DNA of 64,000 nucleotides from Candidatus Daviesbacteria bacterium. GTDB taxonomy: Bacteria; Patescibacteriota; Microgenomatia; Daviesbacterales; UBA10151. The stretch covers positions 25,073-89,072 of the forward strand of contig JAKFWZ010000078.1 of assembly GCA_021731695.1 (NCBI GenBank), read 5' to 3'. The notes under the pieces were generated by a model. It did no database searches, had not been told where the DNA came from, and saw only the letters and a program-made list of their open reading frames with translations. The position numbers and the translations under genes are program-made. This document shows, one piece after another, positions 1,021-64,000 of the stretch (the first letter of the stretch is position 1; each line of letters opens with the position of its first letter).

Positions 1021-1552
1021 GCAGATAATTTCAGAAGTTGACGATAACGGTAAGTTTATAAAGTATATCCCCAGAATGTTGGGGCATACAGGAAATGGCA
1101 GAAGACATTTAGGAATAACAATTTTAGTTTATAACTCGGAGGGCCAGTTACTTCTTCAAAAAAGAAAACACATGGTGTTTGATAATGTTTGGTGTTTTAC
1201 TGCGGATACACATCCTTACAGACTTAGAAGCGGTGAAGCTGAAACTGTTGATGAAGCTTCAAAAAGAGCACTAAAAGAAGATTTTAATATTGAAAATATT
1301 TCTTTGGAAGATCTTGGATCATTTAATTATTTTGCGATTGATGGGAAGTATTGTGAGAATGAATACTGTGCAATGATGATTGGGGAGTATGATGGTGAAA
1401 TTAAAATGAACCCTGAAAATGGATATGATTTTGAATGGATGGATAAAAAAGATTTTATTAGAGACTTTAAAGAAAATCCGGATAAATGGGCGCCATGGGT
1501 TTTGGGCGGAATAGAAATATTAAAAGAAAAGGGATTTTTTGATGGAGTATGA
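1004..1552 (+). CDS. idi: Nudix hydrolase, type-1 isopentenyl-diphosphate delta-isomerase-like
   Basis: Nudix fold with an IDI-like core (ILVYNSEGQLLLQKRK...SGEAE...RALKEDFNI). It sits directly upstream of the mevalonate operon. Confidence 0.55.
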   Translation: MVFMSEQIISEVDDNGKFIKYIPRMLGHTGNGRRHLGITILVYNSEGQLLLQKRKHMVFDNVWCFTADTHPYRLRSGEAETVDEASKRALKEDFNIENISLEDLGSFNYFAIDGKYCENEYCAMMIGEYDGEIKMNPENGYDFEWMDKKDFIRDFKENPDKWAPWVLGGIEILKEKGFFDGV

Positions 1553-2078
1553 CGGCGAGCTCATTGATATTGTCAGTGAAAATAATGAAGTTATTGGAAA
1601 AGCTACAAGAGGAGAAGCTCACAGAAAAGGATTAATTCACCGGGCACTTTCTGTTTTAGTTATAAGCTCAAAAGGTGAGCTATTGCTTCAGCAAAGATCT
1701 GCAAGTAGATCAATTCATGCTCTCTCTTGGGATCTTTCAACCTCTGAACATGTTCAATCAGGTGAAGCATTTGAAAGTGCAGGAGAAAGATCTTTAAAAG
1801 AAGAGCTTGGAATCACTGCGAATGTTATTAAAGCCAGTAGTCCAAAATTGCAAAAAAGAGAATACCATTTGAAAAGCGAAATGGTTTATGAGAATGAGAT
1901 AGTTCTATCTTTAACAGCAAATCATGAAGGTCCTTTTAAACCAGATCCGAATGAAGTTGCACAGGTTAGTTTTTTTTCTGTTGATGAAATAGAAAAAATA
2001 ATTGAATCCGGAGAAAAATTTACACCTTGGTTTATTGACGAATGGGAGAATGTTAAATCGTTAATCGTTAATCGTTAA
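1539..2078 (+). CDS. Nudix hydrolase, second IDI-like paralog
   Basis: Region ALSVLVISSKGELLLQQRS...SGEAFESAGERSLKEELGI is paralogous to the preceding gene. Its last 6 codons and the stop are encoded by the heptamer tract. Confidence 0.5.
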   Translation: MMEYDGELIDIVSENNEVIGKATRGEAHRKGLIHRALSVLVISSKGELLLQQRSASRSIHALSWDLSTSEHVQSGEAFESAGERSLKEELGITANVIKASSPKLQKREYHLKSEMVYENEIVLSLTANHEGPFKPDPNEVAQVSFFSVDEIEKIIESGEKFTPWFIDEWENVKSLIVNR

Positions 2079-2128
2079 TCGTTAATCGTTAATCGTTAAT
2101 CGTTAATCGTTAATCGTTAATCGTTAAT
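2059..2128. repeat. Tandem heptamer (CGTTAAT) x10 with stop codons in all six frames, between convergent genes
   Basis: Ten perfect 7-nt units. TAA occurs in every + and - frame. The tract lies between the stops of the Nudix gene and mvaD. Confidence 0.9.
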
Positions 2129-2133
2129 CAGTT

Positions 2134-3111
2134 TTAGAATAAATGCTTATCTGAAAGTTTCGTCCCATCTCCCGGTTCGTTTATTATAATTTGTTTTACT
2201 TCAGGAATTTCTTTAAGTTTCTTTCCTAATTTTTTTACATCCCTCTTTTTAGTTATTAAATGAACATCCTGACCGGTGTTGACAGTAAAGTATACTGTGA
2301 GACCTTCATCCCGCCACTTTTTTGTAAGCTTCATGATTAAAAGCGAGTTAGGGTTCAAATAAATTAACGGTGGGTTTTGAGTCATATAAATCGAGTGGAG
2401 CTCTAATGCTTCCTGCTCAATAAATTCCCCTAATTTGGTAAAGTCTTTTTTCTCTATAATTCTTTTTAGTTCTTCGTTTTTCTTTTTCATTCTCGCAACT
2501 CTTAACTTGAGAAAAGGAGAAGAGTCGGCATTTTCCTGTCCCTCAGAAGTCGGGACTTCTTTTCGGTTTCTCGAAACAACGGCGACTACATCTGCGATAT
2601 CCCAATGATCTTTAGGAAAAATTGTTTTAGCGTAAGAAGTTTCACTTGTATCTCCGTCCATCCATTCTACAATTCCAGACGGAATTGATCTGCAAGATGA
2701 TCCAGATCCCTGGCGGGCTAAAATAGATAATTCTTTTTCAGATAAATTGAGAGCTGCTGCGCTAGCTGCTGCGACAGTCAAAGCAGCAAAACCAGAAGCG
2801 GATGATGATAAGCCGGTTCCGGTAGGGAAAGAATTAACTGAAATCACTTTTGCAAATGTTTCAATTCCGGCGAGGTTTCTGATCCGGTCTAAATGCTTTG
2901 AAACTTTTGCTGCTTCTGTATCAAGTTTTTCATTGTTTATTATTATATCATCTGCTTTTAATTTTTCATCAAACTGCACTGTTGTAGTTGTTAGTAAATT
3001 TGATAAAGTCATGGAAATTGAACCATTTATAGGAAGACGCAAAATTTCATCTTTGCGTCCCCAGTATTTTGTAAAAGCAATATTTGACGGCGCAATCGCA
3101 GTTGTTTTCAT
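2134..3111 (-). CDS. mvaD: Diphosphomevalonate decarboxylase (GHMP kinase superfamily)
   Basis: N-terminus is AIAPSNIAFTKYWGRKDE. Carries the GHMP ATP-binding motif PTGTGLSSSAS. Confidence 0.85.
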   Translation of the reverse strand: MKTTAIAPSNIAFTKYWGRKDEILRLPINGSISMTLSNLLTTTTVQFDEKLKADDIIINNEKLDTEAAKVSKHLDRIRNLAGIETFAKVISVNSFPTGTGLSSSASGFAALTVAAASAAALNLSEKELSILARQGSGSSCRSIPSGIVEWMDGDTSETSYAKTIFPKDHWDIADVVAVVSRNRKEVPTSEGQENADSSPFLKLRVARMKKKNEELKRIIEKKDFTKLGEFIEQEALELHSIYMTQNPPLIYLNPNSLLIMKLTKKWRDEGLTVYFTVNTGQDVHLITKKRDVKKLGKKLKEIPEVKQIIINEPGDGTKLSDKHLF

Positions 3112-4082
3112 TTTTCTATTCTAACTCCTTCTGCATTTACTTCAACTTTTAAAACTTGTCCGCCGACTTTTTTAATAGCATTTTCAATCGCAGATTTTTT
3201 TGATGGGGAAGTGAGAGCAATCATACAATCACCAACTCCAGCTCCTGATAATTTTGCACCAAACGCACCGGCATCTCTTGCGGCATTAATCATATCGTCC
3301 AATTTTTTAGAACTGACCCCTATTTTGAAAAGATGAGTCTGGTTTAGATTCATAAAATCGCCTGCCTTTTTGTAGTTTTCATCAACTAATGCATTTTTCC
3401 CAAGCATCACGACCTTTTCTATTTCGTTAAATATATGAGTATAAAATTCAGGCTTCTTCTTAATTTTTTCCTGAAGCTGTTTAACTATTGTGGGTGTATC
3501 CGCCTTAGTTCCTGAGTATCCAACTACAAGGGAAAAGTTTTTTAAATGAAGCGGCTTTATCGCTTTTCCGCCAGTTAGAAAATAGATGGTTCCGCCATAA
3601 ATGGCAGCGGCTATATCAAATCCTGAACCAACTCCGGCAATTTCCAGAACTGTCTTATACGATAAATCAAAAATTTCTTTGTTAGACAGATTTAAATTTG
3701 AAATTTCAGATAGTGCTTTAATTGCACAAACCGTAGAAGCAGAGGAGGAGCCAAATCCAAAAGTGGATTTAAAATCAGAAATTGTTTTAAATTTAAAGCC
3801 TGACTTTTGAGGATATTCTTTAATGAAATTTTTTAATGCAATCTCTGTAAATTTTGCTCCTTTTGGAATGTCGCCTTTGCCTAAATCAAAAATCTTTTTT
3901 TTGTAACCATCTATTCCAACATCTGGCGCATCTAATTCGAAATATGGTGCTTCAATAGTTGTTAGTTGAAGCTTCAGCCTTTGATCAACAGCAGTAACGA
4001 TACAAGGTCTATTGTAAACAACAGCATGTTCTCCAAAAAGCATTAATTTGCCGGGTGCTGAAACAGTAATTTGGTTTTTCAT
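3108..4082 (-). CDS. GHMP kinase, probable phosphomevalonate kinase (mevalonate-kinase-like)
   Basis: Motifs APGKLMLFGEHAVVY and GFGSSSAS. Overlaps its neighbours by 4 nt within the operon. Confidence 0.6.
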   Translation of the reverse strand: MKNQITVSAPGKLMLFGEHAVVYNRPCIVTAVDQRLKLQLTTIEAPYFELDAPDVGIDGYKKKIFDLGKGDIPKGAKFTEIALKNFIKEYPQKSGFKFKTISDFKSTFGFGSSSASTVCAIKALSEISNLNLSNKEIFDLSYKTVLEIAGVGSGFDIAAAIYGGTIYFLTGGKAIKPLHLKNFSLVVGYSGTKADTPTIVKQLQEKIKKKPEFYTHIFNEIEKVVMLGKNALVDENYKKAGDFMNLNQTHLFKIGVSSKKLDDMINAARDAGAFGAKLSGAGVGDCMIALTSPSKKSAIENAIKKVGGQVLKVEVNAEGVRIEK

Positions 4083-4996
4083 ATTGTGATTGAATAATAA
4101 TCGTATTTGTTTTTCTTTGCAAATTCTACTATGGTATTTGGATCTTCGTGAAAGGCTAAAATCATTCCCGAACCTTCTTTGATTCCACCAGCGCCAGATA
4201 TTTTTCCTGCTCCGCCTAGCGTTTCGATATTGTGAATAATCTGTTTAGCGGCCTCACCAACAACTCCAAGTTTTTCCAGATTTCTTTCAGCTTTTTTTAT
4301 TATTTTAATAAACTTCTCCTGATCTCCCTTTTTTAAAACTTTTGCCATTCGAGTTGCTAATGCTCCCTGGGATTGAAAAATACCAATTATTTCTGATTGC
4401 GACCTTGCATAATTATCTTTGACTAATTGAAGCATTTCAGCTGTTGTCTCAGCTGGTTTTCCTGAATTAATCAAAACCAGATTCGCTATCTCTTCCGGGA
4501 TTTTAAATCCAAGCGGTTTAATTTTATTTGTGGTCTTACCCTTTCTGAATAGAATAATTCCTGATTGTAAAACTGCGGCCAAATCTCCACCAGACGGATT
4601 GCCGTGAAATATTTTTTCTCCCTCGATAGCGATGTCAAAAATATCTTTTTCTGTATAATCAATTTTTAAAAACTTTAGTAAACAAATTGCAAAAGCTGAA
4701 GAAAGCGAGGCGGAAGTTCCGAGACCGGAGCCGACTGGTATTTGTGTTTTATCTATTTCTATTTTATACATGGGAATTTCCACCCCAAATTTTTCTTTGA
4801 TCTTTTTCTCAATAGAATTTTGCAATCTATAAATTGCATCATCATAATGAACAATCCCTAAAATTTCTTTAGTCTTTGATTTAGTTATTTTTGCTGAAAG
4901 ATATAAATTAACCGAAGCTAAAATTGCTGGTTTTCCGTATACAACACTATGCTCACCGATCAAATGAATTTTCCCTGGGATTGATATTTTAATCAT
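4079..4996 (-). CDS. mvk: Mevalonate kinase
   Basis: Motifs IPGKIHLIGEHSVVYG and PVGSGLGTSAS. The start was moved to the ATG at 4994-4996. The 5185 start in the ORF track is a TTG extension through a GC-rich structured element. Confidence 0.65.
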   Translation of the reverse strand: MIKISIPGKIHLIGEHSVVYGKPAILASVNLYLSAKITKSKTKEILGIVHYDDAIYRLQNSIEKKIKEKFGVEIPMYKIEIDKTQIPVGSGLGTSASLSSAFAICLLKFLKIDYTEKDIFDIAIEGEKIFHGNPSGGDLAAVLQSGIILFRKGKTTNKIKPLGFKIPEEIANLVLINSGKPAETTAEMLQLVKDNYARSQSEIIGIFQSQGALATRMAKVLKKGDQEKFIKIIKKAERNLEKLGVVGEAAKQIIHNIETLGGAGKISGAGGIKEGSGMILAFHEDPNTIVEFAKKNKYDYYSITI

Positions 4997-5130
4997 ATTA
5001 ATGAAGCACCACGGGCTTACGCCCGTGGTTTCTTCTAGCTTCAAGCGGCTAAGGTCGCTTGTCCTCACACTACGTGTTCGGAAAATCTTCATCCGCGAGC
5101 TAATGCTCGTGGTTTTAAGATTTGTCGCTA
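4997..5130 (+). ncRNA. GC-rich structured element A, a candidate small RNA or terminator cassette homologous to 11830-11935
   Basis: One hairpin is CCACGGGC-TTAC-GCCCGTGG followed by TTTCTTCT (5009-5036). A second is CGAGC-TAAT-GCTCG followed by TGGTTTT (5096-5117). The shared motif CTTCATCC..CGTGGTTTT is also present in element B. Confidence 0.3.
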
Positions 5131-5230
5131 TAAACCAATAACCCAATATAACAAATAAAGCCAATGTCCAATAAAGTCGCAACAAAAATAATTAGGAATT
5201 GGTTTATTGGGTTATTTATATATTGGTTTA
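5131..5230. repeat. Partial copy of the dyad CCAAT/ATTGG intergenic element
   Basis: Contains aaaccaataacccaat...ccaatgtccaat...aattggtttattgggttat...attggtttatt. It shares motifs with 7791-7915 and 50297-50425. Confidence 0.5.
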
Positions 5231-5581
5231 TTATTTTATGGCGGGCCTCACTTTAACTATATATTCAATAATTTCCGATGGATTAACTTTTTTACCTCTT
5301 CTTATAACAGTCACAACTTTTAAATTTGGTTTTAATGAAGATTCTTCACAATCAACAATTTGAGCTGGCATTTTTTCTCCGTTTTCAAATTCAACAATAC
5401 CAGAAATATACGGAATAAAATCTTCAAAGCCTAAAGGAGGTACTGAAATTTTTGTCCACACCAAAAGTTTACCCGTTCTATTAAGGTACTTATTTAAAGT
5501 TTTATGGTGTCTCCAGACTTGTGATGGGTTAGTCATTTTGTAATATATGTACGGCGACTGTTGCACCTGTTCCTCCGACAT
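5231..5581 (-). CDS. DUF35-type OB-fold protein, partner of the thiolase/HMG-CoA synthase pair
   Basis: 116-aa protein with a C-terminal OB-fold-like region. It lies immediately downstream of the thiolase and HMGCS genes, as in archaeal operons. The true start may be Met16 at about 5536. Confidence 0.5.
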   Translation of the reverse strand: MSEEQVQQSPYIYYKMTNPSQVWRHHKTLNKYLNRTGKLLVWTKISVPPLGFEDFIPYISGIVEFENGEKMPAQIVDCEESSLKPNLKVVTVIRRGKKVNPSEIIEYIVKVRPAIK

Positions 5582-7772: not shown

Positions 7773-7790
7773 GTTTAATATTTAATAAAC

Positions 7791-7915
7791 CAATAAACCA
7801 ATAAACCAATTTCAAATAAAATTGCCTTGGGACTTCGTCTAAAACCAATTCCCAATGCGCTCCAATCTTATTGAAATTTGTATATTTGACATTGGTTTAT
7901 TTGTATATTCTAGCG
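7791..7915. repeat. Dyad CCAAT/ATTGG intergenic element, copy 2
   Basis: Structure is (aaaccaat)x3, then gacttcgtctaaaaccaattcccaat, then tttgacattggtttatttg. The core is 24/26 identical to 50348-50373. The arms are inverted (aaaccaatgtcaa vs ttgacattggttt). Confidence 0.6.
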
Positions 7916-11767: not shown

Positions 11768-11822
11768 TCTGGCTGGATTTTGATGAAAAGGAATTCAAAA
11801 AAGCCCTAAGTTGGTATGAGCC
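11768..11822 (+). repeat. Direct repeat of the uppS 3' end (orphan fragment), about 85% identical to 10968-11025
   Basis: ctctggctggattttgatgaaaaggaattcaaaaaagccctaagttggtatgag matches the uppS C-terminal codons LWPDFDEKEFKKALSWY. Confidence 0.75.
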
Positions 11823-11829
11823 TCTGGGG

Positions 11830-11935
11830 ACTCCTCTTCGCTTCGCCCGTAGTTTCTCTTCCTGCCCGCCTTCGGCGGGATTCGCCTACCGGCGAAGCAA
11901 ACTTCATCCAGGACGCACATCCGTGGTTTTCGTTT
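11830..11935 (+). ncRNA. GC-rich structured element B, a candidate sRNA or terminator homologous to element A
   Basis: Outer stem gcttcgcc/ggcgaagc encloses a cccgcc-TTCG-ggcggg tetraloop hairpin. Then comes CTTCATCC and a weak hairpin plus CGTGGTTTT. Confidence 0.3.
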
Positions 11936-11995
11936 GAAGGAATAAAAAACAAAAAAGATGGAAATGAGGAACTATAAAAAGAGGTAAAGTTAGGT

Positions 11996-12535
11996 CTAAG
12001 GCTGCTTTGCTGATTTTGAGGATTCGCTTGCTCCCATTTCAGCGGGTCTGAACAAAGCTGCTGACCCGGAGGCGGTTGGGATAGGAGGCGGGGCCTTGTA
12101 TGGGACATTGTATATAATTGAAGATATCGTAAACTTATCCTCAACCATATCTAGGTTTACTGTAAGTTGTGTATTTAAATCAATTGACTCTGGGTCAACG
12201 TCTGGGATTTGTTGGTTATCTGAAGTAGTTTTATTTATATAAAATGTTTTGCCTGTTTCAAATGCTCCTTCAGTGCCGTTTTGGTTTTTGACAGTAATCC
12301 ATTTTCCGTCAACTTTTACAACTTTTCCTTCAATCGCGGCCGATTGTCTGGAAAAAACAGGTTTAGCTTTTAGGTTTTCCGGAGTCAATTTATTAGAACC
12401 TAAATTCATCCCCAAAATAAGACCAAAAATAATTCCTACAATTAACCCAAGTAAAATTTTCGCAATTTGAAAGCTTTTGCTCGATGGAATTTTTTGATTT
12501 ATATTAGGTTGGACATAAGGGCTTTCCGAATTCAT
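11996..12535 (-). CDS. Hypothetical N-terminally anchored protein
   Basis: One TM helix (ILLGLIVGIIFGLILG) followed by a soluble domain. Confidence 0.4.
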   Translation of the reverse strand: MNSESPYVQPNINQKIPSSKSFQIAKILLGLIVGIIFGLILGMNLGSNKLTPENLKAKPVFSRQSAAIEGKVVKVDGKWITVKNQNGTEGAFETGKTFYINKTTSDNQQIPDVDPESIDLNTQLTVNLDMVEDKFTISSIIYNVPYKAPPPIPTASGSAALFRPAEMGASESSKSAKQP

Positions 12536-14019
12536 ATTTTTTTCTCAAGCGCCTCGATCCGAGCTTTTAGCCTGTCGTTTTCAAGTTTAAGCTCTTGGAT
12601 TGCCTTTGTCGTGTATGGAATTACATCTCTATAATCCATAGAATAATATCCGCTGCCCTCCATATGTACACTTCCTGGCAGGATTGGCAAAGCATCCTGG
12701 GCAATAAATCCGCTGGCATTCTTTCTGCCGTCCAGATAATCAAATGTAGCGGGTTTTAGTTGGGCAACTATTTCAAGGCCGCTATTGTCACCTTCCAGAT
12801 AGCGGATATTTTCTTTTAACCTTTTGTCTGAGCCGCAATTCCCCATACTGCCTGAATTTGTGAAACATTGAGGATTGGAACCTGGTGCGTTCATAGCCGG
12901 ATCTTTGAAATCTCCAGTACCTCCAGCTAATATAATACTTCCGACTACAGAGAGTTTTTCAGAGGGATTTGTATCTCCAATCCCTACATTACCCAGTACA
13001 TCATTTAATACAATATTCCTCCAGGCAACACCAGGTTCGTGGTATCTAATGGCAAAATAGGGGGGCACAGGCGACGACGGGGTCACTGCAAACATCTCCA
13101 GCCCTTTTGTATTATTAATAGCAGGGGTTCCTAAAAAGATATTCCCTATTCCGGCACCCGGGTTGATCCTGGCGCTGCCGCAGACCATAAACGTAGCCCC
13201 GCCTCCCAGAGCTCCTCCACACCCCGCTCCTGATGGAGATCCGGAGTCGAATCCGTGCTGCATATACACAGGTTTATTGAATGCACGTACCCAACTAGAA
13301 TCCGTCATCCACCAGCCACCTGCATAAGTTTCGTTATACCAGCCAGCAGCCCCATAACTTCTATGCCAGCCTCCTCCCTGATCGATCACAGTTCCCGCAC
13401 TCATTGTTAAAGCTCCCTGAATAAGTGCATTTCCATTTACATCCAATGGCTGACTGGGGTTTATAGTTCCTATACCGACCCTTTTAGTAGTTGGATCAAC
13501 ATATAAAGTTTCTCCGGCCCTGATTTTTCCGATATTCGTACCCGGATCACCAGGAAAGTTTAAGTAGAGTTCTCCTTGGGCATTAATTACAAGATGAGTA
13601 TTCGTTCCTCTAATATAGTTAGTAGTAGTTGAAAATCCGTTATCAGTGCGTATTTGTAAGAGATTTTGGAGACCAGTCAAGTTAAGTTGTTCAACTGATA
13701 GGGTTTTGAGGACTGAGTTGGCACTGGGATCAAGATTATATGCAGCATTATTTAAATCTATCAGACTGCGGATTCCGGCTGCTCCGCCTGGGGTCAGTTG
13801 AAGGCTCTGCCCACTGGTTGCACCATTCCCCTGAAGGTAAAAATTTAAATTGGGAGGACTCGCAGTATCTCTGCTGGTTACCCAGTCTTGATTGTTGGTC
13901 TGAGCGAAACTCACGCTGCTTAAGCTCAAGACCGCTGCAAATCCCAGAAACAAAATTGAAAAAAAAGCATACATGATTTTAAATGGAAATTTTATATCTA
14001 TAGTTTCGAATTTATACAT
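12532..14019 (-). CDS. Tailspike/fibre-like surface protein with C-terminal S74 intramolecular-chaperone (auto-cleaving) domain
   Basis: Signal/anchor at the N-terminus and a Gly/Asn-rich beta-rich body. The C-terminus reads GSDKRLKENIRYLE...GFIAQDALPILP...AIQELKLENDRLKARIEALEKKI. Confidence 0.6.
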   Translation of the reverse strand: MYKFETIDIKFPFKIMYAFFSILFLGFAAVLSLSSVSFAQTNNQDWVTSRDTASPPNLNFYLQGNGATSGQSLQLTPGGAAGIRSLIDLNNAAYNLDPSANSVLKTLSVEQLNLTGLQNLLQIRTDNGFSTTTNYIRGTNTHLVINAQGELYLNFPGDPGTNIGKIRAGETLYVDPTTKRVGIGTINPSQPLDVNGNALIQGALTMSAGTVIDQGGGWHRSYGAAGWYNETYAGGWWMTDSSWVRAFNKPVYMQHGFDSGSPSGAGCGGALGGGATFMVCGSARINPGAGIGNIFLGTPAINNTKGLEMFAVTPSSPVPPYFAIRYHEPGVAWRNIVLNDVLGNVGIGDTNPSEKLSVVGSIILAGGTGDFKDPAMNAPGSNPQCFTNSGSMGNCGSDKRLKENIRYLEGDNSGLEIVAQLKPATFDYLDGRKNASGFIAQDALPILPGSVHMEGSGYYSMDYRDVIPYTTKAIQELKLENDRLKARIEALEKKI

Positions 14020-35251: not shown

Positions 35252-35659
35252 ATGCCAAACCAATCCCAAAAACTAAGTCAGTCTGGAATCGATCATACAA
35301 TCATTGTGGTTTACAGTCTGCCTGTTAACGAAATGCGTTTAGGGGGCGCTGTGATAAAAGCCGGACATTCTGCGGGAATGGAACTTTCGGGAACTGCTGC
35401 TACAATTTTTCGAAATAGAGGGCATCGGGTCGAGATTGTAAAAACTTCAAGAATGCTGGTTTCAAATCCTGACCCAAATCTTGTAGGAGTTTACCTGGAA
35501 ACTGAGAATACCTTTGTTTCTTCTCAGGAAGAAGTTAATCATGAAACAAGAAAAGGAAGTGGTAGATTTATAACAACGATACTCACGACTTTAGAGAGGG
35601 TTGAAGGAATGGACGAATTGAGAGGCTTATCCGAGCAGCAATTATTGAAAGCAGTATAA
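35252..35659 (+). CDS. Hypothetical 135-aa ORF bracketed by hairpins H1 and H2
   Basis: ORF with no motif. It may be non-coding. Confidence 0.25.
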   Translation: MPNQSQKLSQSGIDHTIIVVYSLPVNEMRLGGAVIKAGHSAGMELSGTAATIFRNRGHRVEIVKTSRMLVSNPDPNLVGVYLETENTFVSSQEEVNHETRKGSGRFITTILTTLERVEGMDELRGLSEQQLLKAV

Positions 35660-35682
35660 TTCAATCTTCTTGATGAGGCAGT

Positions 35683-35790
35683 GTGTGCCTGACCCCGTTA
35701 GAAGTATAGTCATGATATTGAAAAAGTTGATCAACGTAATCAGTTCTTATTTCGGATTATGTTAAGTCAACATACTTCGAACGGGGTTGA
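35683..35790 (+). promoter_or_regulatory. Hairpin H2 homologous to H1, ending in a TTGACA-N17-TTAAAAT promoter-like box
   Basis: Left arm cctgaccccgttagaagtatag. Right arm atacttcgaacggggttgaca, followed by tagcttgcgagcctctg and ttaaaat. Confidence 0.4.
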
Positions 35791-35997
35791 CATAGCTTGC
35801 GAGCCTCTGTTAAAATCTACTTTACCTTTAAATCCATGAGGATTAGGTTAGACTGGAGAAAGTTTCTATCAAGTAATACTACTTACAGTTGAATATTTAG
35901 TTATGGGTAATGAGTTATGAGTGATGAGTTTTCTCGTAACACATAACTCAAAGCAAGCCATAAGGCTAGCGCACTCATCACTAAAAAGCACCTTAAC

Positions 35998-36031: not shown

Positions 36032-36341
36032 CTTGCGTAAAAGTAGGAAAAAGACCTGTCGATACTATCTAACCGGATAGCTTCGACTCCAAAAGAGTGG
36101 TGGGAAAAAACACGATCAATTAAATGATTGTGAGACAAGAGTATAAGTTTCATGAAAGTGAAGCCAAGCTCTGTCAATTCCAAATTTTAGTAAGCAAAGC
36201 TTGCGATAGTTCCGGCTAACGCCGTGTAACTATCTAAGTAATACTTACTTCGAAAACAATAAATCGAAATTTCACTTTCACAAGTGATACAGCGTTTTAG
36301 AGTTGGAAAAACTTTTTAAGTGTTTTAAAAACACTTTATTT

Positions 36342-36384
<43 letters not shown>

Positions 36385-36589
36385 TAAGCATGCAAGTCGA
36401 ACGATCTGTAGCAATACAGGTAGTGGCGGACGGTCGAGTAACGCGTGGGGATCTGCCTTAAAGTTGGACATAGCTCATCGAAAGGTGGGGTAATTTCCAA
36501 TGTGAACGTAAGTTCAAAGCCGCAAGGCGCTTTAAGATGAACCCGCGTCCTATCAGCTAGTTGGTGGGGTAAAAGCCTACCAAGGCATC

Positions 36590-36621
<32 letters not shown>

Positions 36622-37159
36622 GGAATAGCACTGAGACACGGGCTATACATCTACGGATGGCAGCAACTGGGAATCTTGCGCAATGGGGGAAACCCTGACG
36701 CAGCGACGCCGCGTGGAGGATTGAAGGCCCTCGGGTTGTAAACTCCTTTTGACTGGGAAGATTATGACTGTACCAGTAGAATAAGCACCTGCTAACTACG
36801 TGCCAGAAGCCTCGGTAATACGTAGGGTGCAAGCGTTATCCGGATTTATTGGGCGTAAAGTGTTGCGTAGGCTGATTTGCGCATTTTGTTTAAAAGGCTA
36901 AGGCTTAACCTTAGTTTTGGGCAAAATATGGCAAATCTTGATGGTTTAAGAGGGTACTGGAACTTAACATGTAGCAGTGAAATGCGTTGATATGTTAAGG
37001 AACACCAAAGGCGTAGGCAGGTACCTGGGAAACTCATGACGCTGAGGCACGACAGCTAGGGGAGCGAAGCAGATTAGAGACCTGCGTAGTCCTAGCCGTA
37101 AACGATGAATGCTAGTTAGTCCCTCTTTTGGGACCGACGTAAGGTAACCCGTTAAGCAT

Positions 37160-37210
<51 letters not shown>

Positions 37211-37671
37211 AGGCGCACAAGCAGTGGAGCATGTGGTTTAATTCGATACAAAGCGAAAAACCTCACCAGGGTTTGACATGTAGTTGCTAAGCCTAAGAAA
37301 CTAGGCCTCCTTCGAGGGTACTACACAGATGGTGCATGGCTGTCGTCAGCTCGTGGCGTGAGCTGTACCGTTAAGTCGGGTAACGAGCGCAACCCGCATC
37401 GTATGTTAAATAATTCATACGAAACAGCCCCAATTTTTGGGGAGGAAGGCGCGGATGACGTCAAGTCAGCACGCCTCTTACACCCTGGGCTACACACATC
37501 CTACAATGGCGAATAACAACGAGTTGCAAGCCGGTAACGGCAAGCTAATCTCTAAAATTTCGCCCCAGTTCAGATTGAGGGCTGCAATTTGCCCTCATGA
37601 AGTCGGAATTGCTAGTAATCGCGAATCAGCAGGTCGCGGTGAATACGTTCTCGCCTCTTGTACACACCGCC

Positions 37672-38603
37672 TTATAGTATTTAACATAATGCTATAAAAA
37701 AACGCGCGTGGCAGCGTAAATATCTAGTTGGTTAAAGTCCAACCTATACTTAATAGTAGTCAAAAAAATTTGGCAGATCCGATAGAGTAATTTATCGATT
37801 TGGAGGGCCTGAGACAAATAGCAGTCCTCAGATAAAAAAATCTTTTAATAAGTGATCTCAGCCGGGCGGTTTGAGAGAAATTTAACGATTAGGAAAAGAT
37901 TTTTGAGGAATGTTAGGAATAGATATTAACGTGACCCATGGAGATCCTACTGGGAAGAAGGTAATTGCCCAGAGGAAGTCAGCAGATTCATAGTAGGTAT
38001 TATTGACATTTGGGTTAGATTCGGGTTAATCTGAATTTATACCAAATAAATACTGAAGGGATCTACGAAATGTTAACACCAGACTATATTGTTGGTTTAA
38101 CCGATGGAGAAGGCTGTTTTCTGGTTCAGATAAGAACCGATTGTCGAATAGTCTTGAGATATTTTATTACACAACGTTTTGATAATGTCGAACTTTTAAA
38201 CAAAGTTTATGGCTTTTTCAAAATAGGCTATGTATATCGAAAATTTCAGGGAAATGACAAAAAGAAAATGACCTTTGTCTATGAGGTAACGAAACAAAAC
38301 GATATTCAAAATGTGATTATTCCTTTCTTTAGGAAATATCCATTAGAAGGTATCAAAAATGAGTCTTTTAGAAGGTTTGCCCGTATTGCTGAGATTGTAA
38401 AAAATCGACAGGATACACGTAAATTATCTGAAGATGAATTAAAAGAAGTCTGGCATTTGAAGCTCTCTATGAATTCTCTTCATAATGAGCCAAAGGATCG
38501 TCTGAGCGGAGCTCGTAATGATCCCAGAAACATTTCGGCTCGCTTAGTGCCGGAAATCGGCTCGCTAAGTGGGAACGGAAAACAACCTTAAGTTATTCCA
38601 ATC
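37672..38603 (+). mobile_element. Self-splicing intron (probably group I) in 16S near E. coli position 1400, carrying a homing-endonuclease ORF
   Basis: Insertion between ACACCGCC and CGTCA. Contains the LAGLIDADG ORF. Boundaries are good to about 2 nt. Confidence 0.65.
38070..38591 (+). CDS. LAGLIDADG homing endonuclease (intron-encoded)
   Basis: Motif YIVGLTDGEGCF. It lies inside the 16S insertion. Confidence 0.75.
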   Translation: MLTPDYIVGLTDGEGCFLVQIRTDCRIVLRYFITQRFDNVELLNKVYGFFKIGYVYRKFQGNDKKKMTFVYEVTKQNDIQNVIIPFFRKYPLEGIKNESFRRFARIAEIVKNRQDTRKLSEDELKEVWHLKLSMNSLHNEPKDRLSGARNDPRNISARLVPEIGSLSGNGKQP

Positions 38604-39116: not shown

Positions 39117-39662
39117 ATGATGAAACCAAAATCAAAGCCAGTAGTCATCTTATATCCTGAAATTGCCGATAAAATATCACAGATGGTTAAAAGTGATCAG
39201 GAAATGAGAGTAAGAATGCAGGATGATCCAAAAGCTTACAAATCTGATATAGATACGAGGAATACAGATCAATTGAGAAAAATTGTTGAGGAAATTGGCT
39301 GGCCAATTTTTTCTAAAGTTGGTGAAGAAGCGTCAGGGAGTGCATGGCTTCTTATCCAGCATGCCGATCATGATGTTGTCTTTCAGGAAAAGTGTTTGAA
39401 GCTAATGAAAAAAGCTCCTAAAAAACAAATACAAATCCAAAATATTGCGTATCTTGAAGATAGAGTGAGGATTAATCAGGAAAAACCTCAAATTTACGGA
39501 ACACAATTTGAATTAGTCGGGGAGAACGACTGCAAGCCAAAAAACCTTGAGGATCCAAAAAACGTTGACAAAAGAAGGAAATCTATGGGGTTGAATACGA
39601 TTGAGGAATATAAAAAAGAATTTATGGAGTTTTATCAGCTAAAAGCAAAACACCACGGATGA
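39117..39662 (+). CDS. Hypothetical protein
   Basis: 181-aa ORF with a -10 box upstream. Confidence 0.4.
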   Translation: MMKPKSKPVVILYPEIADKISQMVKSDQEMRVRMQDDPKAYKSDIDTRNTDQLRKIVEEIGWPIFSKVGEEASGSAWLLIQHADHDVVFQEKCLKLMKKAPKKQIQIQNIAYLEDRVRINQEKPQIYGTQFELVGENDCKPKNLEDPKNVDKRRKSMGLNTIEEYKKEFMEFYQLKAKHHG

Positions 39663-39795
39663 ATCCGTGGGTGAAAGCTTTACCGCGGAGCGGTCAGCGA
39701 ACAGCTTTTAGCTGTGAAGCTGTATTGAGAAGCTCGCTGCTTTAGCAGTGCAGCTTCATAGAGTCGGCAAGTAAGGCTTTTGATATACTTAAGTT

Positions 39796-40630: not shown

Positions 40631-41866
40631 TTAGCTGTTCGATTGGCATTCTACCTTCAGGTTTTCCGGAAGTCTTGAGCAATAATTTTTGTATTCTTCT
40701 GATCCCTTATTAAAAACTTTGTTAGGATAGTTAATAAGAAATTCATCACATTTTTTGCCGTTTTCTGGTGAAGTTTTAGCTGCTTCCCGGCACATAAAAA
40801 TAGCCTTATCCGTTAGATTAATACTTGTTTGAAGAATTCTACTGGTAGTTTGTAAAAAACATAGCGACTGAAAATTTGTAGGAAGTTTAGTGCAGAAATC
40901 AGCAAGAAAAGGCAAATTATTTTTTTTAAAAGCAAAATGATTTGCAACAGCATTCATAAGAGTTTTGTAGCATTTGGTTTGTTGAGGAAAATCAGACGTG
41001 TATGAACAAAAGTTAGTCAGCCCTTCGGGAGTGCTGATGTCATTCCAAAAATATGGCCAGGATTCTCTATGACATACATAATAGGGTATACCTGTAAAGC
41101 TATCGCAAAACTTATCGATACTTTGTTTGTTCTTCTGAGGAGCAATATTTTCTATAAGTGTAAAATCGTCAGGCTCTAGAGGTTGGAAGAGTTGCATAAA
41201 AACCCCGGAGATACAATTTTCTATATATTCGCGACCTTCAGTTTCCTTACCTATATCTTCGCAAATCTCAACCGATTTTGAGATATTTGCATTTGTTAGA
41301 AACATACTTAAATGACCAAGTCCATGATTGCAGTTATAGACATCAACTTCTTTAGGGTGCCAATCTTCTCTAGGTTCACATATAGTTGCCAGTTCTGATT
41401 TTAAAGAATCTGCTTGACCTTCAGCTATAGTTTCGGTTTTAAATTTCTCGATAAAAGCTCCATGAGAACAGCCGCCGCTACAAAGATTCGAAGGGCATCT
41501 GGCTGCGACATCTTTCCAATTGGCAGGATTCTTTGTGACTTCCGCTGAACCCAAATCGTGAGCTAGAGTATGACAATAGGCAAAAGTGGGATCTTTCTCC
41601 CGGACATTTTCAAGAATTTGGAAGGCCTCTTCCATAGTTAAATTCACTGGATCTTTAGTAAGTTTAAAAATCTTATCACTATAACATTTATCCTTACCTT
41701 TAAATTCCTTACAAGTTTCAAAGATTTTTTCTGCATACTGAGTGAGGGTTGGGGCTGGTGGACTAAGTTTTCTCGAAAGAAATATTGAGAGCATGTAAAT
41801 TAAACCAATAAATATAAAGCAAATTACGAGCTTAAGTAATTGGTTTTTCTTAATGGTTTTTCTCAT
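40631..41866 (-). CDS. Anchored Cys/His-rich protein with repeated C-x-H-x-x-x-H motifs
   Basis: Recurrent motifs YCHTLAHDLG, GCSHGAF and NCNHGLGHL, plus about 20 Cys. Confidence 0.4.
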   Translation of the reverse strand: MRKTIKKNQLLKLVICFIFIGLIYMLSIFLSRKLSPPAPTLTQYAEKIFETCKEFKGKDKCYSDKIFKLTKDPVNLTMEEAFQILENVREKDPTFAYCHTLAHDLGSAEVTKNPANWKDVAARCPSNLCSGGCSHGAFIEKFKTETIAEGQADSLKSELATICEPREDWHPKEVDVYNCNHGLGHLSMFLTNANISKSVEICEDIGKETEGREYIENCISGVFMQLFQPLEPDDFTLIENIAPQKNKQSIDKFCDSFTGIPYYVCHRESWPYFWNDISTPEGLTNFCSYTSDFPQQTKCYKTLMNAVANHFAFKKNNLPFLADFCTKLPTNFQSLCFLQTTSRILQTSINLTDKAIFMCREAAKTSPENGKKCDEFLINYPNKVFNKGSEEYKNYCSRLPENLKVECQSNS

Positions 41867-43327: not shown

Positions 43328-43435
43328 TAAGGGTATTACTAAAGTAGCCTGGCGTTGTAAACATTTAGTAAACCTAAAGTAGAATCCTAGCTTCGGGCAT
43401 GTTAAAATACCTAGGTTTGGAATGAAAATTTTTTT

Positions 43436-43507
43436 GGGCGCGTAGCTCAGCGGTAGAGCGCGTCTCTGATAAAGACGAGGCCCTTGGTTCGACACCAAGC
43501 GCGCCCA
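43436..43507 (+). tRNA. tRNA-Ile (GAU)
   Basis: GGGCGCGTAGCTCAGCGGTAGAGCG, anticodon loop cTGATAa and T-arm GGTTCGA. Confidence 0.85.
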
Positions 43508-43627
43508 CCCCTAAAATTAATTCCTTGCAATTTCAACCGAAATTGTAAAAACGCAACGCTAGGGGTTCGACACAATCACCGCCCACATTGATACTTTTTG
43601 GTTTCTTCTGTTTAAATTTTCCAAAAA

Positions 43628-50298: not shown

Positions 50299-50425
50299 AC
50301 CAATGAGTAAACTCGCGCTTTGCGCTAAACCAATGAGCAGAGCTTGCGACTTCGTCTTAAACTAATTCCCAATATTGTCTTTTGTGTTTTAATTGGACAT
50401 TTGTTTATTTGGCATTGGGTTATTG
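50297..50425. repeat. Dyad CCAAT/ATTGG intergenic element, copy 3 (upstream of gap)
   Basis: Structure is aaaccaatgag x2, then gacttcgtcttaaactaattcccaat, then ttggacatttgtttatttggcattgggttattgg. Confidence 0.6.
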
Positions 50426-50503
50426 GTTTATTCAAAATTAGAATAATTTTGTTTATTTCTTGTCTGGAATTGCTTAAATATTTATGTTAGGTTTAATTAG
50501 TAG

Positions 50504-61790: not shown

Positions 61791-61862
61791 GGGCCCGTAG
61801 TTCACCGGTAGAACGCTTCATTTGCAATGAAGATGCAGGAGGTTCGACTCCTCTCGGGTCCA
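61791..61862 (+). tRNA. tRNA-Ala (UGC)
   Basis: GGGCCCGTAGTTCACCGGTAGAACG, anticodon loop tTTGCAa and T-arm GGTTCGACTCC. Confidence 0.85.
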
Positions 61863-62254
61863 CAGGTTTAATGATTAAAGAATGATGATTAAGGATTAAT
61901 GAATAAAATCATTAATCGTAAATCTTTAATCACTAATCAATCTTTTTTTGACTTGGATATGGATTTTTGACGAAGAATAGTTGAAAGTCCATATCCGGGC
62001 CGAAGATATGGCTTTAATTCTATTAATTCCCACTAGGGAAAGAGGAATAAAGTTTAAGTCCTTGGAGTTTGTACTTTGAAATGTGAATACGACATAAATG
62101 AAGAGCAATCAGCTCTCAGTCAACAGTCGTCAGCCAATCGCAAGAAAAGCTGAAGTCTGAAAGCTGAAGTCTGAAAGCTCTTTTATGAGAAGGCCAATAA
62201 GGGTCAGATTTAACATCTGATCCATGAGCGTCGTCGAGACGCTCAAAATAGTCA

Positions 62255-64000
<1,746 letters not shown>

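Follow-up and report, generated by a model that had tools for sequence, protein, structure and literature searches.

GC-rich structured repeats beside a mevalonate kinase gene of Daviesbacteria are probably transposase-less IS200/IS605 derivatives

The question raised by this locus is what kind of element separates two genes of an operon and recurs elsewhere in the window, by which we mean the whole 64,000-nt stretch of DNA that was analyzed. The operon runs on the minus strand in the order HMG-CoA synthase, thiolase, DUF35 (a gene of small OB-fold type), mvk (mevalonate kinase), a second GHMP kinase, and decarboxylase. Element A lies, as the initial annotation had described, where all genes are on the minus strand, between the DUF35 stop (5231) and the mvk ATG (4996). 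The elevated GC content reported for A and for a second element, B, was borne out: in 100-nt windows it rises up to 0.53 in A and up to 0.60 in B, against ∼0.25 to 0.35 in the surroundings and 38.8% in the AT-rich window as a whole. The sequence blocks that the two were said to share are real, too, and an exact search of the window found them in these two places alone, with CGCCCGTRGTTTCT at 5020-5033 and 11844-11857 and CTTCATCC-N-CGTGGTTTT (N = 8-30) at 5087-5116 and 11902-11930; the latter had 0 occurrences in 100 shuffles. Both elements also terminate, as had been observed, in a hairpin followed by TTTT on the plus strand. The predicted fold of A stands out strongly from those of shuffled sequences (z = −9.1 on the plus strand and −7.2 on the minus strand), and that of B is less striking (z = −2.6 and −2.1). 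These features had been taken to indicate a candidate small RNA family or, as another option, a repeated structured element, and the second option has turned out to be right, A and B being homologous and part of a widespread repeat family whose structure is conserved. Our explanation, to which we assign a probability of about 0.9, is that A, B, and a third element, C, are non-autonomous elements of the IS200/IS605 family (PATEs, for palindrome-associated transposable elements), ∼125 to 130 nt in length, that consist of the two transposon ends only. They are a known kind of mobile DNA in a Patescibacteria host and not a new RNA family; their GC-richness, their shared blocks, and the apparent “hairpin plus T-run” are footprints of transposon recognition elements viewed from the opposite strand.

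The elements and their parts are as follows, where “top strand” denotes the tnpA-sense strand.

5001..5129, minus strand: element A proper, a probable ORF-less IS200/IS605 derivative (PATE), delimited by alignment of copies in unrelated flanks.
5130..5133, minus strand: putative target (left cleavage) tetranucleotide TTAT of A (ATAA on the plus strand), outside the element, flanking its left end and conserved in copies.
5001..5004, minus strand: putative right cleavage site TCAT (ATGA on the plus strand), the last 4 nt of A; ATGA is invariant at the 5′ limit in 11 of 11 aligned copies.
5009..5028, minus strand: right-end subterminal hairpin IP_R of A, CCACGGGC-TTAC-GCCCGTGG, from the fold and compensatory changes.
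5029..5032, minus strand: complement of the putative right guide G_R, whose top-strand sequence GAAA immediately precedes the IP_R foot; read from the sequence.
5042..5061, minus strand: internal hairpin of the A right end, CAAGCGGC-TAAG-GTCGCTTG, from the fold.
5088..5116, minus strand: left-end core of A, comprising TTCAT, IP_L, and TTTT on the plus strand, from the fold, the pattern, and covariation across 36 copies.
5093-5112, read on the plus strand: IP_L hairpin of A, CCGCGAGC-TAAT-GCTCGTGG, within the left-end core.
11816..11941, minus strand: element B proper, a second probable PATE, of the “B-like” subfamily, delimited by alignment with six ∼90%-identical copies in unrelated flanks.
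11942..11945, minus strand: putative target TTAT of B (ATAA on the plus strand), beside its left end, from the copy alignment.
39636..39759, plus strand: element C, a third probable PATE, absent from the initial annotation, found as a covariance-model match; its top strand is the plus strand of the window.
39653-39670, plus strand: left-end hairpin of C, from the sequence of the element.
39729-39757, plus strand: right-end hairpin of C, diverged, from the sequence of the element.
39632..39635, plus strand: putative target TTAT of C, within the 3′-terminal part of the DUF6624 gene (39117-39662), from the joining of the flanks.

The top strand of A and B is the minus strand of the window, an assignment based on the orientation of the genes in gene-carrying relatives and on the IS608-like spacing, and the right end (RE) of A lies at low coordinates and its left end (LE) at high coordinates. 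Read in this sense, both elements follow the layout TTAT, junction, 16 to 18 nt, AAAA, a hairpin with the foot CCACGG..CCGTGG, and ATGAA and, after the interior, GAAA, a second hairpin, 4 nt, TCAT, and the other junction. In A, the left-end core thus reads guide G_L (AAAA), IP_L, and the 3′ extension ATGAA; the arm of IP_R ends at 5009, and TCAT, set off from the hairpin foot by 4 nt (5005-5008), ends 8 nt 3′ of it. The LE and RE hairpins of A have different sequences. The shared blocks can all be read in these terms: CGCCCGTRGTTTCT corresponds, on the complementary strand, to G_R together with the right hairpin arm, with 5029..5032 forming the “GTTTC” part of the first block of the initial annotation, CTTCATCC to the hairpin foot together with the ATGAA extension, and CGTGGTTTT to G_L together with the hairpin foot. 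The T-runs are hence complements of guide tetranucleotides and not terminator tails, and the earlier remark that A is not simply a terminator was a fair one. With the flanking target included (ATGA ... ATAA), A in fact extends over 5001-5133 and B over 11816-11945; both had been located before, but B had been drawn too short at both ends. The three elements measure 124 to 129 nt, of which ∼50 to 60 nt are interior. Both hairpins of B depart from the consensus of the B-like subfamily, the RE hairpin (11824-11852) being partly degenerate, with CTGGGG where CTACGG is expected, and the LE hairpin (11908-11926) having a bulge.

A is an insertion. In the closest relatives that were compared (loci L003 and L004, with mvk products 81% and 71% identical to that of the window), the DUF35 stop is separated from the mvk ATG by 1 to 4 nt, the DUF35 and mvk proteins align end to end with those of the window, and the stretch 4997-5230, which is composed of A and a 100-nt AT-rich module, is wholly extra in the window. 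Because the two relatives also lack the adjacent module, the exact pre-insertion sequence is inferred from a paralogous module only. The module beside A has two paralogues in the window, one of which ends in ...GGGTTATTGGTTTAT followed without interruption by TCAAAA (that is, ...GGTTTAT and then TCAAAA), whereas the copy beside A runs from ...GGGTTATTGGTTTAT directly into the element; this comparison indicates that A starts exactly 3′ of TTAT. The top strand of A is the coding strand of the operon, and its hairpin and U-run face the antisense direction and so, judged from this orientation, should not terminate the operon transcript.

Several minor observations concern the same locus. The AT-rich intergenic module, ∼75 to 100 nt in length, occurs three times in the window, at 5134-5230 (read on the minus strand), ∼7783-7905 (plus strand), and ∼50340-50435 (plus strand), with the consensus AAAC(C/T)AATTCC(C/T)AAT ... 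TTGGACATT.G.TTTATTTG ... TTGGGTTATTGGTTTAT, which includes a TTGACA-like hexamer; it may represent a portable promoter or a further small mobile element. The deposited mevalonate kinase (P0001, 368 aa; 4079-5185, minus strand) is called from a TTG start at 5185 and reads across element A, whereas its homologues, which bear Levybacteria and Daviesbacteria names, have 299 to 329 aa and align from the ATG at 4996; the names of these homologues place the host among the Patescibacteria/CPR bacteria of the Microgenomates type. The longer call is an annotation artifact that arises because the frame stays open across the element. Similarly, the DUF35/OB-fold ORF (5231-5581, minus strand) encodes 116 aa, but the 100-aa proteins of relatives align from its internal Met 16, and the true start is probably at about 5536.

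The identity of the elements emerged from their relatives in public genomes, metagenomes, and viral contigs. A scan for the three-block pattern in one genome per species gave nine true copies, from Daviesbacteria, Harrisonbacteria, Jorgensenbacteria, a Patescibacteria MAG, and two AT-rich MAGs labeled Gammaproteobacteria; the other 13 loci were chance matches or unrelated repeats. Six copies from other Patescibacteria-type genomes are ∼90% identical to B in flanks that are unrelated, the similarity extending exactly from ATGA to ATAA, and A-like copies are far more diverged, with stems kept through compensatory changes. A scan for the 3′ module (TTCATCCACGG-N-CCGTGGTTTT) yielded 9 viral and at least 120 metagenome loci, the viral scan with the 5′ module pattern yielded no matches, and the pattern scans together gave more than 130 related sites. 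When the neighboring ORFs were clustered, two recurrent proteins were found to adjoin the 3′ module on the opposite strand, with start codons 30 to 80 nt away. Pfam identified one of them as an IS200-type transposase, TnpA (Y1_Tnp, PF01797; E from 1e-29 to 3e-42), and the other as TnpB (OrfB_IS605, Cas12f1-like_TNB, and HTH_OrfB_IS605). By local HMMs, a TnpA gene, a TnpB gene, or both lie 30 to 80 nt from the module at 17 of 123 distinct sites among the matches listed, and beyond those genes, on the side away from the module, there is an A-type hairpin.

Y1_Tnp or OrfB_IS605 genes are enclosed by an A-type RE hairpin and an LE module at L100, L101, L114, L126, L037, and L028-L032, and a hairpin of the IP_R type is seen past the 3′ end of tnpA or tnpB in L100, L101, L114, L126, L030, and L037. 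The clearest example is L100, a complete 556-nt element carrying tnpA only (AATGAAACTCCACGGCCTGAAGGCCGTGGTTTCTTTTATATCGCAAGCTTCGCTTGTCC ... tnpA ... CTCTTCATCCACGGCCTAAAGGCCGTGGTTTTCTTACATTGAGCATATAA; in full, ATGAAACTCCACGGCC..GGCCGTGGTTTCTTTT..CAAGCTTCGCTTGTCC..tnpA..TTCATCCACGGCC..GGCCGTGGTTTTC..ATAA), which aligns with A in the right-end hairpin, in a CAAGC..GCTTG hairpin, and in the left-end module. The RE of A thus aligns with that of a tnpA-carrying element, and its internal hairpin is homologous to the CAAGC-TTCG-GCTTG hairpin that comes after IP_R in the tnpA-carrying L100 and L101. Given that the A-type hairpin and the module flank tnpA or tnpB in these relatives, A and B can be understood as both ends of such an element without its genes. 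Among the matches listed, 90 sites lack a transposase and have 300 nt or more of sequence upstream, and in 69 of them an RE-type hairpin lies 46 to 297 nt upstream. Short ORF-less elements thus appear to be the commonest form of the family.

The initial annotation had staked its family idea on further copies and covariation, and both were found. Across 36 copies, 88% of the cells in the LE stems are paired, compared with 69% in shuffles, and 99 cells have changed on both sides, compared with 43 in shuffles; slid controls for the pairing all gave values near 36%. The covarying parts are the inner hairpin pairs and a lower stem formed around the guide and the ATGAA extension, and IP_R shows compensatory changes of its own across copies (GGGC/GCCC, GGCC/GGCC, and GGTC/GACC). 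In the 36 diverse left ends, TAA of the flanking ATAA is invariant and the preceding A is nearly so, and the sequence beyond is unrelated. No terminal inverted repeats are present, the ends ATGAAGC... and ...GCTATAA not being reverse complements, nor is there a target-site duplication, the flanks of 11 copies sharing only the fixed ATAA. The reading frames differ among copies: 1-nt indels interrupt them, L025 has a stop after 16 codons, and L019 is read in another frame, so that no frame is conserved and the elements are non-coding. A small protein, which the ATG and TAA at the limits and a 44-codon ORF in B-like copies might have suggested, was ruled out by the same three observations.

The arrangement of these parts agrees closely with that of IS608 from Helicobacter pylori, the mechanistic paradigm of the family, in which the left cleavage site C_L (TTAC) lies 19 nt 5′ of IP_L and outside the IS and the right cleavage site C_R (TCAA) lies 10 nt 3′ of IP_R and inside the element (PMC3201880), and in which the guides are G_L AAAG and G_R GAAT, with C_R TCAA (PMC5934647). 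The order C_L, spacer, G_L, IP_L ... G_R, IP_R, C_R on one strand is the same here, as is the location of C_L outside and C_R inside the element. The first three bases of each pair are identical, TTA with AAA on the left and TCA with GAA on the right, and the fourth bases have changed in pairs, giving TTAT/AAAA against TTAC/AAAG and TCAT/GAAA against TCAA/GAAT, a change that would fit pairing of each guide with its cleavage site. The elements differ from IS608 in their spacers, which are 16 to 18 and 8 nt in A, the B-like copies, and L100 as opposed to 19 and 10 nt, in the covarying lower stem that encloses G_L and the ATGAA extension, and in the lack of genes in the window copies. On the tnpA-sense strand, each element begins just 3′ of its TTAT target, and the left-end hairpin, 16 to 18 nt on, with AAAA as putative guide before it and ATGAA after it, is followed by one or two internal hairpins and by the right-end hairpin, with GAAA as putative guide before it, the element ending with TCAT 8 nt past that hairpin. 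If the mechanism is also that of IS608, a dimer of Y1 (HUH) TnpA, supplied in trans, would bind both hairpins on single-stranded DNA, the guides would pair with TTAT and TCAT, and the strand would be excised as a circle to be re-inserted 3′ of another TTAT.

ORF-less derivatives of IS200/IS605 elements are known as PATEs from Haloquadratum walsbyi, Halanaerobium hydrogeniformans, and Geobacillus stearothermophilus (PMC3119063, PMC7290912, PMC10055086). Like them, the present elements have only two hairpin-bearing ends, no terminal inverted repeats, and a fixed flanking tetranucleotide, share their ends with elements that carry tnpA or tnpB, and outnumber the autonomous copies. Unlike them, they reside in a Patescibacteria/CPR-type host, are very compact (115 to 135 nt), have TTAT as the target and a CCACGG/CCGTGG foot in both hairpins, and lack a partner transposase in the window. 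A further resemblance is to the REP/BIME sequences mobilized by RAYTs (REP-associated Y1 transposases). These, too, are short, GC-rich hairpins outside genes, next to a conserved tetranucleotide and often just after stop codons, and are linked to Y1 HUH enzymes. REPs, however, occur as single palindromes or as inverted pairs and number from tens to hundreds of copies, whereas the elements described here have two hairpins in direct orientation and distinct left and right ends, which also flank ordinary IS200-type tnpA and tnpB.

Element C came from the covariance-model search that the initial annotation had proposed. The LE model (R1), run unfiltered over the whole window, scored A at 46.8 bits and B at 40.6 bits and matched a third site at 39630-39689 (minus strand) with 36 bits and an E-value of about 1e-5, beyond which nothing else was convincing. 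C belongs to a subfamily with L025, L059, L062, and L151 and sits 3′ of TTAT, four codons before the original stop of the DUF6624 gene. With the insertion, the protein ends in ..EFY followed by QLKAKHHG and a stop; with the flanks joined, it would end, in frame, in ..EFY followed by RVGK and a stop, and the closest homolog without the tail ends in ..EFYGK. The same insertion is present in an 85%-identical DUF6624 ortholog (P0122, locus L156, from the same sample as L003), where, however, the copy of C has a 43-nt internal deletion, altered stems, and a different right hairpin. The deletion and the changed hairpin suggest that C is old and decaying, and its decay argues against purifying selection on an RNA product. 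In terms of mobility, A is absent from L003 and L004 and C is common to the window and L156; a true orthologous site without the insertion was not found for B, which lies between a PIN toxin gene (plus strand) and an unannotated ORF (minus strand). A tblastn search with TnpA and TnpB over the 64-kb window found neither tnpA nor tnpB. Of two marginal matches, one, at 35619-35801, lay in frames full of stop codons, and the other, at 41336-41785, fell in an uninterrupted ORF but was at chance level (E = 0.36, 22% identity, 154 aa). The copies in the window are most likely immobile relics, a reading suggested by the lack of a transposase in the window together with the degenerate hairpins of B and C.

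Other traces of mobile DNA were seen around these loci. The ORF at 12532-14019 (minus strand) encodes a 495-aa protein with a shufflon N-terminal-like region and a Peptidase_S74 (endosialidase chaperone) domain; it adjoins a PIN/Phd toxin–antitoxin pair and element B, and this area may be a piece of a mobile or phage-derived patch. In L156, a LAGLIDADG homing-endonuclease gene (1453-2451, minus strand) lies ∼650 nt downstream of the DUF6624 ortholog.

One alternative is that the elements encode an independent sRNA of ∼120 nt, trans-acting or antisense, which is transcribed from the plus strand and ends in an intrinsic terminator. The strong predicted structure of A, the covariation of stems across homologs, and the hairpin followed by a U-run on the plus strand would all suit such an RNA, as would G-U pairs that are slightly more frequent in folds of the plus strand, but a strand test by wobble pairs in the lower stem, with 7 G-T against 9 A-C pairs, revealed no strand bias. 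Moreover, the conserved blocks are transposon-end features that stand beside tnpA or tnpB elsewhere, the similarity among copies begins exactly at ATGA with no conserved promoter upstream, and a promoter scan gave no suitably placed match. A separate hairpin resembling a terminator follows many copies, the stems are broken in several B-like copies, and, as described above, the ortholog of C has lost 43 nt with changes in its stems and A is missing from the orthologous loci. The Rfam scan that had been suggested, which covers the ribozyme, riboswitch, and IS-associated RNA families of that database, gave no match at the gathering score in the window and 20 related loci and none to A or B even at E up to 10. 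The proposal of a small RNA family is therefore unsupported, and we regard it as highly unlikely.

Another possibility accepts the elements as PATEs and supposes that they also carry an omega/reRNA scaffold, in the tnpA sense and ending at TCAT with the flank as guide, that TnpB would use in trans for homing. PATEs are reported to “often encode omegaRNAs” that are acted on in trans (PMC10055086), the LE module is also found on TnpB-carrying elements (L028-L032, L037, L136, L140, and L152), and many ORF-less relatives are 150 to 250 nt in length and have covarying internal stems. The closest full-length relatives of A, however, are tnpA-only elements without tnpB (L100, L101, L114, and L126), and the ∼50 to 60 nt between the ends of A, B, and C leave little interior. 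In tnpB-carrying elements, the tnpB stop lies ∼50 nt before the right end, so that the scaffold region is tnpB coding sequence, which PATEs lack. With the absence of tnpB from the window and of an Rfam match at E up to 10 also taken into account, a guide-RNA function of A, B, and C seems very improbable. A cis-acting host signal, either an mvk leader or riboswitch or a set of domesticated terminators at gene ends, is extremely unlikely and not needed to explain the data: A does lie directly upstream of mvk on its coding strand, and B-like copies do come right after stop codons in gene orientation, with a hairpin and U-run that could terminate transcription, but A is missing from the same operon in the closest relatives, its hairpins have no U-run on the operon strand, the contexts and orientations of A, B, and C are unrelated, one relative lies between tRNAs within an rRNA operon, and the ATAA target accounts for the location just past stop codons.

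Other identities were rejected along the way. No tRNA or tmRNA was found at the elements, and 5S-like motifs were considered by eye and dropped. Also by eye, a hammerhead core was rejected because the invariant U4 is missing and stem III is unclosed in most copies, a K-turn or C/D box because there are no G-A pairs, an integron attC because RYYYAAC/GTTRRRY is absent, and a mini-CRISPR because the two hairpins of one element differ; a TIR-type MITE with TA/TAA duplication would account for no more than a few short viral copies. A search of the literature on Patescibacteria for structured RNAs or MITEs turned up no relevant report.

If the elements are transposon ends, as we consider probable, the geometry of their insertion at stop codons is of some interest. 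On the complementary strand, TTAT reads ATAA and includes the commonest stop codon, and TCAT reads ATGA, with TGA in the same frame; insertion of an element that starts with ATGA directly before ATAA would therefore turn a gene end xxA-TAA into xxA-TGA and leave the protein unchanged. Of the six B-like copies that lie outside the window, four indeed have an upstream ORF ending within the first four bases of the element, at the TGA of ATGA in L012, L013, and L016 and at a TAA overlapping the first A in L026. A broader picture might be that of an IS200/IS605 clade adapted to the compact genomes of Patescibacteria, which lands on gene ends without altering the protein, whose hairpins and U-runs might act as terminators, and whose 150 to 250 nt ORF-less relatives might carry TnpB guide RNAs; taken as a whole, this picture is speculative and rather unlikely. 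The stop-codon-restoring geometry is in itself a small, testable idea on how single-strand transposons are tolerated in gene-dense genomes, and elements of this family do appear to be tolerated in an essential operon (DUF35-mvk), in the last codons of a gene, and in rRNA spacers without obvious damage. For annotation, they are a reminder that GC-rich folding islands in AT-rich Patescibacteria genomes can pass for novel sRNAs when they are, as is probably the case for A, B, and C, transposon ends. Once recognized, such elements can mark reduced genomes in which IS200/IS605 transposons were once active.

Some further observations concern hosts and rRNA loci. The B-like copies L012, L013, and L026 come from MAGs CAYMTV01 and CAYOSW01, which are labeled “uncultured Gammaproteobacteria” and whose loci have 37 to 42% GC; either the label may be wrong or the element may have crossed phyla. 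In a metagenomic rRNA operon (L073), a relative at 2848-2875 (plus strand) lies in the 16S–23S spacer between tRNAs at 2260-2332 and 2921-2994 (minus strand), antisense to the operon. The rRNA genes of the window itself are unlinked, with a 16S gene at 36336-37743 (a match of 1408 nt to a model of 1533 positions), tRNA-Ile at 43435-43510, tRNA-Ala at 61791-61863, and 23S at 62260-64000; the 16S gene lies ∼5.7 kb from tRNA-Ile, which in turn lies ∼18 kb from tRNA-Ala and 23S, with protein ORFs between.
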